From NCBI GenBank assembly GCA_051651625.1, contig JBOFSQ010000111.1:229-64228 (forward strand): a stretch of 64,000 nucleotides of DNA. Reading direction: 5' to 3'. Shown here piece by piece: positions 4,315 to 57,498 of the stretch. Under the pieces are notes generated by a model. The model did not search any database, was not told the DNA's origin, and saw only the letters and a list, made by a program, of their open reading frames with translations. The stretch's first letter is position 1, and every line of letters begins with the position of its first letter. A program made the translations under genes and the position numbers. This DNA is from Thermoguttaceae bacterium. Its GTDB lineage: Bacteria > Planctomycetota > Planctomycetia > Pirellulales > Thermoguttaceae.

Positions 4315-4616
4315 GCAACAAAAAGAAGTAGAGCGAATCGAAAATATCAGGTCAATGGCGGTGCGCGACTATCAATTTCCCCGATAGGGGAAGAATATCA
4401 GTAGAACGAACGACCACACCAGAATCCGGTTTTGCCCGTAGGGCATCAATGATTTCAGCTTCGTTGATATGAATGCCATACGGGCAAGGGAAAAACCTGA
4501 CAAACTCTTCGTGTCCTTTGTGCTCTTTGCATCTTTGTGCGCAAAAAAGAATCGCTAATGATGTCGGCGGTCATGTGAATTGTGAACGCTTACAAAACCA
4601 CTAACGGACAAATCGG

Positions 4617-34632: not shown

Positions 34633-35643
34633 TCACCGCAGTGATTCTTCGAACTCTTCAATCGACTTGCACTCCAGTGCGAACTCCGTTAGCGATTCGA
34701 GGACGACTGAATCACGAATTGCCATCACGCGGTCTTCGACATGCTGTGGCACCGTGCGAAGACGCTTCTTAAGAATGCGAAGAAGTGTGCGTGCCGCGCC
34801 TTCCACCCTGCCTCGTGCTTCGCCTTCTGCTCTCCAAACCTCTACCATCGTTGGCATTTTATCGTCTCCTGTTTCTTGTTGAATTATCGGGGCAAACTGT
34901 TCGTAGTTGCGTTTTAGTCGCTTCGCGCTGCTGACCAAATAAAGCCAAATCAATCTCGCCAAACGCAAGTATTCCGGCTCAACCAAATTTTGCGTCTTTA
35001 GCTCGCGAAAAACTTCTATCGCCATCGTACCCACATCGCGCCGAAAAACTGCTCGCAAAATTGTGAGTACGGCTTTGAGTTCGGGCACTTCCGCGTCGCA
35101 TGGAATTTCATCGTTCTGGCTCAAATCGAAAAGAATCGCTTCCATCCGTGGGAAGTAACGCTCGACGCCCGGAAGCTGCGAAAACATGTCGAAAAGTTGC
35201 GTCACTCCCGTAAACGCCGACTCGCCGTGGTAGACAATGATCGGCACCACCGGCGGAAAACGATACTTCTTCGCACTGAACCGTTTCTTAGCTTGCGATT
35301 CGCGCAAGTTCATCTGACAAATTAACTGGACATAACACCAAAGCTGAAAAATTGTCAGCGCGTCGTTGTAACTCTTGTGCTCAAGCACTGCAAAAAAGTC
35401 AACGTGTTGTTTTGTGCGTTTGATCGGTACGCGATAAATTACGTCGGCGACTTTGCCTTTGAAGAGGTCGCTTGAAAGGTCGCGCGGCAAGACATTGAGT
35501 TTTTTCAAGTCGAGAAACGGTAGCGTCTTCGGCGGGAGCGTTTTTTTGAGGAATGCTTCCGCGAACCGTTTTTCCCCAAACGTTTCGAGAAAAAACGTGT
35601 TGTGCGTTACTTCTGCCGGCACTTGAAAATGTTCACCGCTCAT
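34633..35643 (-). CDS. Rpn-family recombination-promoting nuclease / putative transposase (YhgA-like PD-(D/E)XK)
   Basis: HNTFFLETFGEKRFAEAFLKKTLP...ADVIYRV...DFFAVLEHKSYND matches the Rpn N-terminal nuclease pattern. Start MSGEHF at 35643. Confidence 0.7.
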   Translation of the reverse strand: MSGEHFQVPAEVTHNTFFLETFGEKRFAEAFLKKTLPPKTLPFLDLKKLNVLPRDLSSDLFKGKVADVIYRVPIKRTKQHVDFFAVLEHKSYNDALTIFQLWCYVQLICQMNLRESQAKKRFSAKKYRFPPVVPIIVYHGESAFTGVTQLFDMFSQLPGVERYFPRMEAILFDLSQNDEIPCDAEVPELKAVLTILRAVFRRDVGTMAIEVFRELKTQNLVEPEYLRLARLIWLYLVSSAKRLKRNYEQFAPIIQQETGDDKMPTMVEVWRAEGEARGRVEGAARTLLRILKKRLRTVPQHVEDRVMAIRDSVVLESLTEFALECKSIEEFEESLR

Positions 35644-35705
35644 GGCGTGACATTGTAACCGCGACGATGGAAAATCGTAGGGGGCACGAGAGAGACGTGG
35701 CGAGG

Positions 35706-35820
35706 AATCAGAGCGGGAAGCGTAAGCGAGTGCCGCGTCAGAGAAGACGCAGCACAAACGAAATACCATCAGGATTGGTTCCCGCTTTCGCGCCGAACGA
35801 CGGTATGTGGCGGGAATGGT
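35706..35820 (+). repeat. Family B unit + degenerate family C segment
   Basis: aatcagagcgggaagcgtaagcgagtgcc ... ggttcccgctttcgcg ... ggcgggaatgg. Confidence 0.8.
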
Positions 35821-35823
35821 TAC

Positions 35824-36294
35824 TTACTTCTTGCCAGCCGATGGTTTTTCTACAACGATGTCTCGCTTAATAGCACCACTCCCTTTGGCAATTTCGAGCG
35901 TCATACCTGAAGTTGCACCTTCAAAGTATTTCTGATCAATAAGCGGTATTTGCTTTGGCATTGCTCTTGGTGCTGCATGACGCCCCGCTCCACCACCAGA
36001 CGTTGACGCAGAATCGGCAAATGTTCCGATAAACCATCCTTTGTACGTTCCGGGTGGCACACCATCATTAACAGTGACACCACCCAGCGTAAACTCACCT
36101 TTGGCGGTAAGGGGCGACGAAACACGCGTAGTCGCGGACTCGAAGACAATAGTCCCCTTCGTTAGTGGTGTACCATCTTCAAACTTAACCGTCCCTTTGA
36201 CCACCGTGTTCTGCGAACATCCAACGACAAACACAAGTGAACAACAAGTAATGAGCGAACCTACAAGACGCGTAAGTGATAGTGGCAGATGCAT
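35824..36294 (-). CDS. Small lipoprotein (carboxypeptidase-regulatory-like beta domain), DUF1559 companion
   Basis: Lipobox LVFVVGC, then GTVKFEDGTPLTKGTIVFES. Paralogous to 54124-54534. Confidence 0.7.
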   Translation of the reverse strand: MHLPLSLTRLVGSLITCCSLVFVVGCSQNTVVKGTVKFEDGTPLTKGTIVFESATTRVSSPLTAKGEFTLGGVTVNDGVPPGTYKGWFIGTFADSASTSGGGAGRHAAPRAMPKQIPLIDQKYFEGATSGMTLEIAKGSGAIKRDIVVEKPSAGKK

Positions 36295-36358: not shown

Positions 36359-37546
36359 TTACGGCAATGAGACGGACACACCATCATTCACTCGCGCCAG
36401 AGCGGATAACACGCTGCCCGGTGTTGTGTTGCTGATAGCACGCACTGAACCATCACCTATCGCAAAATTGCAAACGCCTGCGTGATAACTACCAAACCCA
36501 AAACCAAAGTGGGCATCGCCATTTCCGCGAAAATCATTTGGACCACGGGCAATTGTTGGACCGTTACGATGAATGGCACGCGCCACATTGAACCTCGCAC
36601 CAACATTCCACCATGCCTGCGTCAGATAGCTCCCGTCAATATCCCAACCAGCGGCATTGTATGGCGGTGAACCAACATTTTCGCTCTGATAAAAGTCAAC
36701 GACGGTCATCCCACTAACACTACCACCACCGAGCATATCTTGTGGAATATGCTTTTCCCCAACAATCAACTGATTCGACGTACCGTCTCGCCACCAAGCC
36801 ATCGTGTCGCGCGGCTCCCATTCGGCTCCAGTCAGCCCTTTTTCCCAATCGTCGTACTCGTTTGATCCGGGGCCAGCATACCGAAATGGTCCCTCAATTT
36901 CTTGTGGATAACCGAGCTGCCAGAGCCATCCCCAAGCACTACTATTCGCGGCGTCACCGTTTGTACGAATGTAGACACAGGCATAGTCGCTCAACGGGCC
37001 GTTACCATATATCCACTGTCCTGTGTCGGGGGCCGCACTGGTTGTTGCTACACCTGAACGCCGTGTCGGACACTTGTAGATTGACACGCTACCAAGCCCT
37101 TTGCGTTGTTCTTCTTTCAGTGAAGCCCACCATTTTGTATCATAGCTGCACGGCACTGTCCCTGAAATATCCTTTTCCATCTGAATCGGCAGTAGCAAAT
37201 CATAGAGAGCCTGCTGTTCAATGAACGGGTAGAGAAGTGGCCAAAACGACATCTTCTCTGGCCAAGTCATAATTGGAGGAAGTCCACGGCGAGCATCTTC
37301 AAAGTTATGGACAGCTAAAGCCACTTGTTTCAGATGGTTGGTACACTGCATCCGTCTTGCCGCTTCGCGGGCAGCTTGGACGGCGGGCAAGAGTAGGGCA
37401 ACGAGAACGCCAATAATGGCGATCACTACCAACAGTTCGACGAGAGTGAAGCCGCGAGAGCGACATCGAGAAGTAGTGGGAACAGCGGCGTCAGAGAAGA
37501 CGCCAAAGACATCACAGAGTTTGCCAACTCTGCCCCCCCCCCCCAT
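36359..37546 (-). CDS. DUF1559 / H-X9-DG protein with a prepilin-type N-terminal cleavage/methylation domain
   Basis: [37 protein letters not shown]; C-terminal [14 protein letters not shown] (H-X9-DG). The candidate ATG at 37546 is followed directly by the G12 tract. The ORF stays open up to 37708. Confidence 0.85.
37533..37544 (-). repeat. Homopolymer G12 (C12 on the + strand) right after a candidate start codon
   Basis: Minus strand reads TGTTAAGATGGGGGGGGGGGGCAGAG. Confidence 0.95.
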
Positions 37547-37788
37547 CTTAACATTCGGCGAGCCACAAGCAGCGCACGCCGCATCGAGCATCGTTTCCAG
37601 TCCACAAACCAAAATCATCAAAGTCTTGTACATAGTTGGTCTCCTTTCAAAAAGCGAAACACGAGAAAACGTCTGGCCACAAACAGTAGCAACCAGCAAA
37701 CACGACAAGCGGAATCGTAGCGAAAGAAATGTTAGGCGTCAATGGGGAGTGGGGAAGAAAACGTTGGTGAGGCGGGGAACGTGTGTCT

Positions 37789-37866
37789 CCATAGGACATA
37801 TAGGTCTTATATGACCTATATGTCCTATGGCACTCGCTCACCACTCGCTTACGCTTCCCGCTCCGG
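37789..37866. repeat. Family D palindrome + inverted family B unit
   Basis: ccataggacatataggtcttatatgacctatatgtcctatgg followed by cactcgctcaccactcgcttacgcttcccgctc. Confidence 0.9.
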
Positions 37867-37930
37867 TTCTTCGCGGAAACGACGAAAGAAAGCTCTTGAC
37901 AGTCGCGGCGGTTTTCGTTACGCTTCCGCG

Positions 37931-39841
37931 ATGCCTTATATTCGCAACTTACTGATACTGTTTGTTTCGTCCACCTTGATTGGTGGTGCGGGGCTGGCCG
38001 TTGTGCCGCGAACGGAAGATGACAAACCAGCGGCAAACGACGTTCACCCCGTTCTGATCGATGCCGTGTCGCCAGTCGCACCCCTGATCACAACGCAACC
38101 ACCAGCACCGGTGCCGCCGCTCGTCGTGCCGGAGACGCTTTCACAACCCGAAAGTATCATCCCCGCAACAACCGCGTCGCCGCCACCCGCAAAGTCGCAA
38201 GCGATGTTGTCGATTCCGGGTATGCCTACGCAAACGCAGTCCGCGCCAACGGTCGCACCGCAAACACCAGCCGCAACAGTACCAACCGACACCGAGTTCG
38301 AGAAACTGATACGTCTCACCGACGTTCGTTCACCGCAAGCGTGGACGCAGTTTTTTCTCAACGCATACCAAGAACGCGACTACAGAACCGCAGAGTGGTG
38401 CGTCGATTTTGAGGGGACTCGTTATCAAACCGCGTCGCTCCGCCGCGACTGTCTCTACCGGCTCGACTACGTTCTGCTGCGGCTCGCCGACACCAAACAC
38501 GTCACGTTTCCCGACAACGACAAAGAGTGCGTTGTCCGATTTCGGACGAAGGAAAACTTCGTCGATCTCACATTCGTCCGTCAACAGCACGGCCACTGGC
38601 AACTGAGCGGAACTTCGGTCGGCCAAATCGACCAGCTTTATCACGCACTCTACGGCAAGCCGCCGATTCGTATTCACTGGGTTATACAGTATCTTCCCGA
38701 ATGGATGTTTCGGATGTACTTCGGCCTGACGTGGTTTCAGTGGCTGTTTATGATCGGTGGTCTCTTTGGCGGCGTTGTCGTCTACTGGATCGTTTTGGGG
38801 ATATTCCACTTCGTCGCGCGGGCGTGGATGCATGTCATTTACCACCGCGAAATGACGCTGTCGCGGAAAGCGTGGACACCGCTTGCGATCATGGCAATGG
38901 TGACGACGTGGTACGGATTCTGCCGCGGATTTAACGGTCTACCGCCCGCCGTGACAGATACAATTCACTACACCACAACGACCATCGTCGTTGCGATGAC
39001 GGTCTTGATGATGCTCCGCGTTGTCGATCTGGTTTCGGCACTCGTTCGCAAACGCGGGCTTGGTCACAATCCGAGTATTGACGCGGTGATTGTGCCGCTG
39101 TTTTCGAGATCGGCGAAGATTCTTGTCATCTTCACGGGGCTTCTCATCGTCGCGCAAACTTACCGCTGGGAAGTGCTGCCGCTCTTGAGTGGAATGGGAA
39201 TCGGCGGTATCGCCGTCGCGTTCGCCGCGAAAGAGACGCTCGCAAACTTGTTCGGATCGCTGACCGTGCTCATTGATCGTCCGTTCATCGTTGGCGATTG
39301 GATCATAACCGGCAACGTCGAAGGGACAGTCGAAGCTGTCGGCATGCGGAGTACGCGAATTCGGACGTTCTACAACTCGCTCGTAACGATCCCGAACAAC
39401 AACCTCACGACCGCGACCATCGACAACATGGGGAGCCGTCATTTTCGGCGTTACAAGACGCTTCTCAACATACAATACGACACACCGCCCGACCGCATTG
39501 AGGCGTTTTGCGAGGGGATACGCGAACTGGTGCGGCGTCATCCGTACACTCGCAAAGACGTGTTCCATGTATACTTGCACGAGTTTTCGTCTGCGTCGCT
39601 CGATATTTTGCTGAATGTGTTTTTCGTCTGTCCCGACACGAGCATCGAGTACCGCGAACGCGGCAATCTCATCAGCGACATTCTCCACTTGGCAAACGAT
39701 CTTGACGTGCGATTTGCGTTCCCAACGCAGACAGTTCATCTCGTAAACGAATCGGATCGCCAGTACGTCGCGCTCAAGGGCGACCCGATCACCGTCGGTC
39801 GCGCCGCCGCCGCGAAGTGGCGTCCGCTCGATGATGAGTAG
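37931..39841 (+). CDS. MscS-family mechanosensitive channel with a long Pro-rich periplasmic N-terminal region
   Basis: GIGGIAVAFAAKETLANLFGSLTVLIDRPFIVGDWI. Start MPYIRNLLILFV at 37931; upstream ORF sequence is repeat-derived. Confidence 0.85.
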   Translation: MPYIRNLLILFVSSTLIGGAGLAVVPRTEDDKPAANDVHPVLIDAVSPVAPLITTQPPAPVPPLVVPETLSQPESIIPATTASPPPAKSQAMLSIPGMPTQTQSAPTVAPQTPAATVPTDTEFEKLIRLTDVRSPQAWTQFFLNAYQERDYRTAEWCVDFEGTRYQTASLRRDCLYRLDYVLLRLADTKHVTFPDNDKECVVRFRTKENFVDLTFVRQQHGHWQLSGTSVGQIDQLYHALYGKPPIRIHWVIQYLPEWMFRMYFGLTWFQWLFMIGGLFGGVVVYWIVLGIFHFVARAWMHVIYHREMTLSRKAWTPLAIMAMVTTWYGFCRGFNGLPPAVTDTIHYTTTTIVVAMTVLMMLRVVDLVSALVRKRGLGHNPSIDAVIVPLFSRSAKILVIFTGLLIVAQTYRWEVLPLLSGMGIGGIAVAFAAKETLANLFGSLTVLIDRPFIVGDWIITGNVEGTVEAVGMRSTRIRTFYNSLVTIPNNNLTTATIDNMGSRHFRRYKTLLNIQYDTPPDRIEAFCEGIRELVRRHPYTRKDVFHVYLHEFSSASLDILLNVFFVCPDTSIEYRERGNLISDILHLANDLDVRFAFPTQTVHLVNESDRQYVALKGDPITVGRAAAAKWRPLDDE

Positions 39842-56217: not shown

Positions 56218-57498
56218 CTACGGCGCAACCGATTCTCCGCCATTGATCGAACCAAGCGCACCCCAAACCCCAAATTGTGATGCACCACTTGTGACGGGTT
56301 TCGCCGCATTTGTGGCTGCTCCCGTCGGATCGTTTGAATAACCCGTCGTGATTGCACTGATTGTATCAGAGACAAACTGCACGGAGCCATCAACTCGTGC
56401 CACGCAAACTCCGCCAGAGTGTTCGCTGGAAGCCGACATCGCCGCGCGAAAACTACAGAAGTCTATTAGTGGGGCGGCAGCGGTTCCTTGGAGAGTGCAA
56501 CTAGGAGAATTGGGAGGCAAGAGCGTGGTGAAACTCGTGAAGACAGGGCGTCCGTCAGACCACCGCTTGCCAGTCAACCGCCCTCGGTCATCTGCCGGGA
56601 CACCTGCCGCAAGATACTCCTTACGCCCATCAATGGTGCTCATGCACGCATATACCGGCAGGCTGGTCACCGCCGTTGTAGCCATGCCGGGAATTTCTGC
56701 CCACGCACCTTTGATGGGAAACGTGTTGCGCTTCGTCTTCGCGTTGCCCGCAACACACTTTTCCGAGAAGATGATTGTATTACTTGTGCCATCAACGACC
56801 GACGCCATTGAGTTCCAACGTGGTCCGGGGGAGAATACACCACGCGGATTGTCTGCGACAGTAGCAGCACTTGGCCAGTCACCAAGCGAATAGGCATACG
56901 AAATGGCTGCCCCTTCTTTCGCGTTTCGATCTGATGGGCACTGCACGGTTAGAATTTCCGCGCCGAATGGTTCCAAGTGTGGTTCCGGATCAAGACCTGC
57001 ATTCGCACCCGATACCGCCAAGTCGTAAATGGCTTGCTGTTCTATGAACGGTGTCAACATCATGAATGGGCTGTAGTAGGAGATGGCCCGCGGCACAGGT
57101 GGAGTGCCAACCATAATCGTCGGATGCTTGATGTAACCATTTCCGGCCGGAAACGAACCGTTGGTGTCGTGGTAGTTTTGTGCGGCGAGTGCGAGTTGTT
57201 TGAGTTGGTTTGTACACGTCATTCTTCTTGCAGCTTCTCGTGCGGCTTGCACGGCGGGGAGAAGGAGCGCGACGAGTACGCCGATGATCGCGATGACGAC
57301 CAGCAGTTCGACGAGAGTGAATGCGCGGCGGAGAAGAGAGCCACCGTTACGCAGATCGACACTGTGCAGATCGAAGTCGAGAGAACGACTTCGTGAGGAA
57401 GAGAAGGGTGTTTGGACGCGAAGACTTCGCGTTTTACGCGAGCTGCCCCCCCCCCCCCAGCTTAACAAACTTAACAGCAATCGCTGACAGGTGGTCAA
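56218..57498 (-). CDS. DUF1559 / H-X9-DG prepilin-type protein with a long leader containing a G13 tract
   Basis: [40 protein letters not shown]-terminal [14 protein letters not shown]. There is no in-frame ATG between the G13 tract and the pilin motif, so translation must start upstream of the tract. Confidence 0.8.
57446..57458 (-). repeat. Homopolymer G13 (C13 on the + strand) inside the 5' coding leader
   Basis: Minus strand reads TGTTAAGCTGGGGGGGGGGGGGCAGCT. Confidence 0.95.

Follow-up and report, generated by a model that had tools for sequence, protein, structure and literature searches.

A poly-G tract in the leader of a planctomycetal DUF1559 prepilin-like gene: a candidate slippage switch with a genome-wide family of relatives

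Anatomy of the G12 tract gene

We analyzed a 64,000-nt stretch of DNA from a Thermoguttaceae bacterium (hereafter the window; positions 229 to 64,228 of contig JBOFSQ010000111.1, assembly GCA_051651625.1), in which a homopolymer of 12 G residues lies near the 5' end of a gene encoding a DUF1559 prepilin-like protein. The assembly comprises 3.9 Mb in 111 contigs with a G+C content of 54.5% and is 92% complete. An earlier reading of the letters alone (hereafter the original prediction) had pointed to the tract on the coding (minus) strand of this gene as a possible phase-variation switch, and the tract was indeed present at 37533–37544. On that strand its surroundings read AAT GTT AAG ATG GGG GGG GGG GGC AGA GTT (C12 on the plus strand), the first G of the tract being the third base of the ATG at 37546–37544, after which 11 more G residues follow.

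The open reading frame (ORF) carries a prepilin N-terminal motif and a DUF1559 domain (Table 1), and its cleavage site, RG/FTLVELL (the slash marks the cut), has its G codon at 37453–37451 and its F codon at 37450–37448, with a hydrophobic helix after the motif. A prepilin peptidase gene was also found in the genome as a PF01478 match in a 344-aa frame on contig C16.

The original prediction had taken ATG 37546 as the start codon, with the tract immediately behind it and two further in-frame ATGs upstream. No in-frame ATG, GTG or TTG lies between the run and G/FTLVELL, and ATG 37546 is therefore the last in-frame start before the prepilin motif, as had been claimed. Among the two upstream codons, the ATG at 37633 is real, but the one at 37708 is a TTG. 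Since ATG 37633 is preceded by a Shine-Dalgarno (SD) sequence and both are conserved, ATG 37546 is probably not the real start; translation probably begins at ATG 37633, ∼29 codons upstream, and ATG 37546 belongs instead to a conserved flank of the tract, so that the placement of the tract directly after the true start was not upheld. The predicted leader is 61 aa long when counted from ATG 37633 and 32 aa long from ATG 37546, which is not the short basic leader typical of pilins.

Table 1. Features of the tract-bearing gene and other elements in the window
Feature	Position	Strand	Remarks
G12 homopolymer, putative slippage switch	37533..37544	-	in frame (ON) with upstream start
ORF	36359..37708	-	N_methyl (PF07963) and DUF1559/SBP_bac_10 (PF07596) domains
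Whole coding sequence of the putatively tract-controlled DUF1559 prepilin-like gene	36359..37633	-	424 aa
Shine-Dalgarno AGGAGA	37640..37645	-	6 nt before ATG 37633
Probable true start codon ATG	37631..37633	-	424-aa product equals gene call in public protein collection (P0001)
N-terminal leader extension upstream of tract	37545..37633	-	conserved among paralogues regardless of tract state
Conserved flank TGTTAAGAT	37545..37553	-	abuts tract
Flank-associated ATG, frame b ('MLRW')	37554-37552	-	
Flank TAA, frame c	37550-37548	-	
Flank ATG, frame a	37546-37544	-	start according to the original prediction
Leader, tract to cleavage site	37454..37532	-	without in-frame ATG, GTG or TTG
Hairpin 1, CAGAGTT-GGCA-AACTCTG	37515..37532	-	directly after tract
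Hairpin 2, TGGCGTC-TTCTCT-GACGCCG	37486..37505	-	conserved UUCUCU loop; 3/7 pairs with compensatory double changes
Prepilin N-terminal cleavage/methylation motif	37388..37462	-	PF07963, E=9.9e-9
DUF1559 (SBP_bac_10) domain of mature protein	36422..37378	-	PF07596, E=1.2e-33
Second copy, TGTTAAGCT + G13 in another DUF1559 gene	57446..57458	-	out of frame with SD+ATG, state b (+1)
Small lipoprotein-like ORF (MHLPLSLTRLVGSLITCCSLVFVVGCSQ...)	35824..36294	-	64 nt downstream of tract gene; no Pfam match

Genome-wide family of G runs and their reading frames

Runs of G or C were counted throughout the genome. On the short side there were 40 runs of length 7, nine of length 8, three of length 9 and two of length 10, while the counts at lengths 11 to 18 were 6, 20, 25, 4, 2, 2, 2 and 1, respectively (62 in total), giving a bimodal distribution with the mode of the long runs at 12–13; no A/T run was longer than 10. 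A G12 run is far beyond chance in this genome. About 55 of the 67 runs of at least 9, when oriented on the G strand, were found in a common sequence context consisting of (A)TGTTAAGAT, G11–15, C and a short hairpin, often with TCTTTGGCGTCTTCTCTGACGCC. The 9-mer TGTTAAGAT occurs at 41 genomic sites and is directly followed by at least 10 G residues at 26 of them. Most of the runs lie 28–121 nt (usually 79 or 88) upstream of the motif that opens an ORF of 325–430 aa.

A survey of the DUF1559 paralogues for 5' poly-G tracts, which the original prediction had proposed as a check, detected a run of at least 10 G residues within 220 nt upstream in 46 of the 85 prepilin-like genes of the genome. The remaining 39 contained no G run longer than 6 and had ordinary short leaders, and a run of 7–9 was found in none of the 85. 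The run was also found in autotransporter genes (PF03797, PATR repeats), where it is located between the start codon and the signal-peptide core. Four of these with G12–G17, encoding 900 to >2000 aa, are at C61:43988, C63:12487, C107:6799 and C63:18423 (contig:position), the one on C61 being in frame (ON) and C63:12487 and the one on C107 out of frame (OFF). A few other runs are intergenic and lie ∼90–130 nt upstream of genes for secreted proteins. The flank can also be found without a long run: a paralogue on C3 (minus strand, near 4608 of the reverse complement) keeps the SD+ATG and TGTTAAAATG in frame but has lost the G run, and an intergenic site, C103:113192, has TGTTAAGAT followed by G6 with a further G8 nearby, both of these being decayed or locked versions of the element.

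The promoter and leader together form a 5' module of ∼400 nt that is 85–92% identical between paralogues, as exemplified by window positions 37565–38000 and C92:33397–33832, versus ∼65–70% identity in the gene bodies, suggesting gene conversion or a strong constraint at the nucleotide level. Contig pairs considered as within-assembly haplotigs with differing run lengths proved to be paralogues, alike only over the ∼400 nt of this module.

In the 46 tract-bearing copies, an ATG-started upstream ORF runs without a stop into GTT AAG ATG, and an SD-like GGAG or GAGG precedes the ATG in nearly all of them. In 24 copies, including the window copy with its G12, the downstream gene is in frame with the SD+ATG (ON), whereas 17 copies (mostly G13) are in state +1 and five in state +2. 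All of the 22 out-of-frame copies retain the upstream ORF together with an intact downstream ORF, the downstream ORFs being 325–430 aa long in all 46 copies, and the out-of-frame copies are not decaying pseudogenes. ON copies were above the 1/3 chance level (binomial p=0.006), the run length modulo 3 followed the frame requirement of each copy (permutation p=0.0135) and among nine copies that require a run length other than a multiple of three to be ON, seven were ON, although the paralogues are related and their counts not fully independent, so that these statistics overstate significance. This excess of ON copies, matched to each copy's own requirement, indicates that the length of the run in the DNA matters.

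Such undecayed out-of-frame copies (22 of 46) would also be expected if recoding took place at the RNA level, that is, if transcriptional slippage or ribosomal frameshifting at the G run, helped by a hairpin, allowed all copies to be expressed with the DNA frame largely irrelevant. Both tRNA-Gly and RNA polymerase can slip on a run of G residues. However, known programmed frameshifts have a fixed relation of upstream and downstream ORFs, whereas relations of 0, +1 and +2 all occur here, and the enrichment of in-frame DNA states, matched to the requirement of each copy, argues that the DNA length itself matters; programmed frameshifting was not favoured on these two grounds.

Codons capable of starting translation are strikingly rare between the run and the cleavage site. 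In the gene frame, ATG, GTG or TTG was found three times in 1167 codons and not at all in 43 of the 46 copies, compared with 89 and 34 occurrences in the other two leader frames, an expectation of 51±6.6 from shuffles and a frequency of 5.6% in the bodies of the same genes. Valine was never encoded by GTG in this part of the leader (0/82, versus 27% in gene bodies), leucine was encoded by TTG in 3 of 93 cases (24% in gene bodies) and methionine was absent (2.35% in gene bodies). This avoidance would be the pattern expected from selection for a tight OFF state and, as the leader offers almost no in-frame start after the run, it is the run that decides the reading frame. GGG was also rare among the glycine codons elsewhere in the leaders (2/86) and run lengths are often not a multiple of three, and thus the pure G runs seem to be kept at the nucleotide level and not as a glycine linker.

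An artefact of consensus calling was considered as an alternative. Here the runs would be real but their lengths mis-called by short-read assembly, and all copies would be in frame, stable and provided with a fixed Gly-rich linker. Long G runs are error-prone in sequencing and library PCR, the lengths mostly differ by only ±1 around 12 and several contigs break at or near runs. On the other hand, lengths range from 10 to 18, and assemblies produced independently with different assemblers again show the runs and the mixture of frame states. Deviations are most often +1, whereas PCR stutter shortens repeats in most cases. Nor would pure GGG codons, which are rare here, be required for a fixed Gly4 linker, and such a linker would leave the avoidance of start codons after the run unexplained. 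We consider this artefact very unlikely.

The reading that we prefer, with a probability of roughly 0.7, is that the G12 tract is a hypermutable simple-sequence repeat in the leader-coding part of the gene that acts, by slipped-strand mispairing, as an on/off switch of the DUF1559 prepilin-like gene. The idea of a slippage-prone frame switch for a surface-protein gene, already put forward in the original prediction, is supported by the bimodal run lengths, the ∼55 pure-G copies in spite of the rarity of GGG, the intact ORFs in all three frame states, the depletion of starts and the in-frame excess. Translation would proceed from the SD-preceded ATG 37633 through 29 codons into the flank GTT AAG ATG, the G run would be read as Gly4, and 26 more leader codons would lead to RG/FTLVELL, where prepilin peptidase would cut and remove the leader. 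If slipped-strand mispairing during replication added or removed a single G, the gene would be uncoupled from its start because no start-capable in-frame codon follows before the cleavage site; with G12, the window copy would be ON. The length would presumably change at a high rate and reversibly within a population, and the proteins are likely to be surface-exposed. The claim that a change of ±1 puts the gene out of frame holds for the run as a frame switch but needs amendment for the longer tract, since +1 brings the flank ATG at 37554 into frame and need not mean fully OFF. Besides the 46 of 85 prepilin-like genes, the same module would control four or more autotransporters and a small number of promoter-proximal sites, and a population could in this way display many combinations of surface proteins.

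Flank, leader structure and occurrence in other genomes

The flank is conserved to a degree that calls for an explanation of its own: TG, T4, A5 and T9 are invariant, T3 and A6 are invariant or nearly so, and positions 7–8 are free. TGTTAAGAT and its variants match TGnTAnnnT of an extended −10 sigma-70 promoter, and transcription might accordingly start inside the G run, the length of which would tune initiation (reiterative transcription), the length of the 5' untranslated region or SD-like strength, and not the frame. The pattern of invariant and free positions fits an extended −10 box, as do AT-rich relatives with TGTTAAAAT, a termite-gut family (L067/L105, see below) in which flank and run stand 4 nt before an ATG, and the intergenic runs upstream of genes. 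This explanation fails as the main function of the flank in the DUF1559 genes because in 43 of the 46 copies, and likewise in short-leader relatives, a transcript from the run would reach the cleavage site without a start codon. The upstream ATG, nearly always with an SD-like site, is conserved in tract-bearing copies, a −10 box needs neither T3 nor A6, and there is no conserved −35. We give it little credence for these genes.

We favour a function in which the flank would offer, just before the run, start codons in two reading frames and a stop codon in the remaining one. Within (A)TGTTAAGATG, the first and third frames contain an NTG (mostly ATG in the third) and the second a TAA. Expression would then be strong at run lengths of 3n, weak at 3n+1 and absent at 3n+2, with an identical mature protein whenever the gene is expressed because the leader is cleaved off. 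The invariant T at position 3 is explained neither by this start/stop/start arrangement nor by the extended −10 box.

Two hairpins lie in the leader downstream of the tract (Table 1). A hairpin 0–4 nt after the run was found in 28–42% of copies versus 2–12% of controls, the values for stems of at least six Watson-Crick pairs being 28% and 2%. Hairpin 1 weakly resembles a terminator, and its stem sequences differ between subfamilies. Equivalents of hairpin 2, with covarying stems inside the translated leader, were found in ∼35 paralogues; in other subfamilies the stems are GAAGTCG/CGACTTC or GGCGACGCC/GGTGTCGCT, and where the two halves of the stem are exchanged the leader peptide reads FGDAFSGVA instead of FGVFSDA, a flip that points to selection on RNA or DNA structure and not on the peptide. 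Both hairpins belong to the long-leader version in this genome. The fold of the whole leader RNA was no more stable than that of shuffled sequence (z=0.55), while the two local hairpins were supported. The excess of hairpins just after the run could fit RNA-level recoding. In most out-of-frame copies, however, expression would require a shift of +1, of a kind that hairpins downstream do not normally stimulate, and short-leader relatives have neither hairpin. Together with the frame data above, this makes RNA-level recoding an unlikely substitute for a switch at the DNA level.

An additional palindrome of 42 bp upstream (37830–37789) was rejected as a candidate operator, since at least 60 copies are dispersed through the genome with no relation to the tract genes. 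It is built of two perfectly inverted 18-bp arms around a 6-nt spacer (CCATAGGACATATAGGTC ATATAA GACCTATATGTCCTATGG) and resembles repetitive extragenic palindromic elements. An Rfam scan of the leader gave only chance microRNA-like matches, which were caused by this palindrome.

Downstream of the tract gene, the small lipoprotein-like ORF is probably co-transcribed with it and may thus be affected by the switch through polarity. Just beyond this pair, a YhgA-like putative transposase (PF04754 and DUF4351) is encoded on the minus strand at 34633–35769.

We searched for the element in other organisms. An exact scan for TGTTAAGATG10 in 185,579 species genomes yielded 38 loci in 13 other metagenome-assembled genomes (MAGs), all but one of which are labelled Planctomycetota. 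The carriers are mostly animal-gut MAGs built with different assemblers and include a termite-gut Planctomycetaceae (Th196P3bin88, ∼21 loci), a Phycisphaerales MAG, Thermoguttaceae MAGs (one from goat rectum) and a lake MAG. A scan of metagenomes for flank and run gave 61 loci, mostly from the same termite samples. The leader in these other organisms is short, beginning with M-K and ending at /FTLVELL, and the non-redundant copies in other MAGs comprised 19 in frame a (VKM), 11 in frame b (LRW) and seven in frame c (behind TAA), with both ON and OFF states represented there too. In contrast to these hits, TGTTAARNTG10 was found in none of 40 relatives and in none of 400 evenly drawn genomes of the phylum, and the distribution of the element is patchy. 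A scan of 400 genomes of the phylum for plain G12 was uninformative, with poly-G at contig ends in many MAGs.

Proteins at least 90% identical to one another from several MAGs have annotated starts inside the pilin transmembrane helix (MVIAIIG..., MVELL...), as in the termite-gut examples L125, L126 and L127 (GCA_031282885.1, GCA_031264685.1 and GCA_031266315.1). In the DNA of this cluster, ATGTTAAAATGG is followed by 9 nt and then G12 or G9AGG, and the gene is in the TAA frame (OFF). At the G run the leader goes out of frame, which makes the annotated starts inside the helix a systematic artefact of annotation. Homologues that are closer to the window gene (57–68% identity) carry interrupted runs after TGTTAAAATG, namely GGGGTGGGGAGG, G8TGGG and A+G10, with P0002 and P0011 representing interrupted runs of the decayed or locked type. 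The termite-gut family mentioned above (L067, L105, L072 and L046; metagenome Ga0099364 and a related MAG) has a tandem flank of TGTTAAAATG, 12 nt and TGTTAAGAT, with G10–G15 located 4 nt before the ATG. In one metagenome, L067 and L105 are 97% identical over 245 nt and carry G10 and G13, respectively, which gives a hint, though only a hint, of length change.

Several observations weigh against the slippage switch, in addition to the overstated significance of the paralogue counts. MutS is present in the genome, so that mismatch repair has not been lost as in Campylobacter, and its loss as an enabling factor is ruled out. No near-identical strain was found by an exact look-up of the neighbouring protein or by a pattern scan of metagenomes for the locus type; the genus consists of this genome only, and identity to the closest protein homologue is 68%. 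At an orthologous gene, the total run length is 12 in each of three related MAGs, and the same G10 was found in two samples, in a look-up biased toward identical proteins. The narrow length peak at 12–13 could in part come from short-read consensus errors at long G runs. Finally, a plain slippage switch could do without the two hairpins and without a flank that is nearly invariant even at T3 and A6, and the mechanism may therefore have more parts.

A more far-reaching possibility, which we regard as doubtful, is that flank and run constitute a portable, sequence-specified cassette that has spread among gut Planctomycetota of different classes and does more than binary switching. Such a cassette could give the three-level output described above (strong, weak and none), with starts in two frames, a stop in the third and a cleaved leader. 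Alternatively, it could work in cis, for instance through a promoter within the tract or a site bound by a protein, and actively drive tract instability or gene conversion between the well-conserved 5' modules, in a manner likened to the promoter beside the pilE G4 motif in Neisseria.

Implications and comparison with known phase-variable systems

In Planctomycetota, few gene families are as large or as poorly understood as that of the DUF1559 proteins. In this genome, over half of the DUF1559 genes, together with autotransporters, are found behind a mutable G run, which suggests surface-exposed structures, and control by such tracts suggests fluctuating selection from phages, host immunity or attachment niche. 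If correct, the slippage switch would mean that large-scale contingency loci exist not only in a few pathogen genera but also in uncultured gut commensals belonging to the Planctomycetes-Verrucomicrobia-Chlamydiae (PVC) superphylum, with a conserved flank and a structured leader as features absent from classical slippage switches. It would also have a practical consequence: automated annotation of these MAGs mis-calls many tract genes, either as truncated proteins that start inside the transmembrane helix or as seeming pseudogenes, because the assembled consensus captures the OFF state. The original prediction had noted that no such mechanism was known for planctomycetal DUF1559 families; consistent with this, our literature search found no description of poly-G tracts or phase variation in Planctomycetes or DUF1559.

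The closest known case is that of pilC1 and pilC2 of Neisseria gonorrhoeae and N. meningitidis, which reportedly undergo poly-G phase variation. As in the window gene, a run of ∼11–13 G residues lies on the coding strand in the signal- or leader-coding part of a pilus-related gene, a change of ±1 G puts the mature protein out of frame with the start, and MutS is present. Neisseria differs in phylum and lifestyle, and has one or two such loci, whereas ∼55 loci share one module here; the conserved 9-nt flank, the long SD-started N-terminal extension and the paired hairpins, all present here, are not known from the Neisseria genes. Switching was experimentally shown in Neisseria and is predicted from sequence in our case. 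Within the PVC superphylum, pmp autotransporter genes of Chlamydia pneumoniae carry poly-G tracts and likewise represent a surface autotransporter family with members switched by poly-G length, comparable to the autotransporters with runs described above, but few pmp genes take part and they are not known to share a flank.

In Campylobacter, the phasome comprises 5–81 phase-variable genes per strain with poly-G tracts mostly inside ORFs and a length peak at 9–10 G (PMC6321876, PMC8355987). The dozens of tracts, the G residues on the coding strand, the narrow length peak and the mixture of ON and OFF states are all shared with the genome analyzed here. The peak here is at 12–13, however, and Campylobacter tracts are found in unrelated genes without a common flank, whereas a paralogous family and autotransporters share a leader module here; Campylobacter also lacks MutS/MutL-type repair, while MutS is present here. 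In Streptococcus gallolyticus, a repeat (GCAGA) in a leader peptide of pil1 moves the ribosome stop relative to a terminator (PMC3894217), and pilus genes are thus under a variable repeat in an SD-started leader ORF followed by stem-loops, similar to the arrangement in the window. The leader peptide of S. gallolyticus is separate from the pilin, whereas here leader and pilin-like protein form one polypeptide, and a homopolymer takes the place of the GCAGA repeat. In sum, the tracts described here are distinct from these known systems in their phylum, the use of a single module at ∼55 loci, the length peak at 12–13, the conserved flank and the long cleaved leader.

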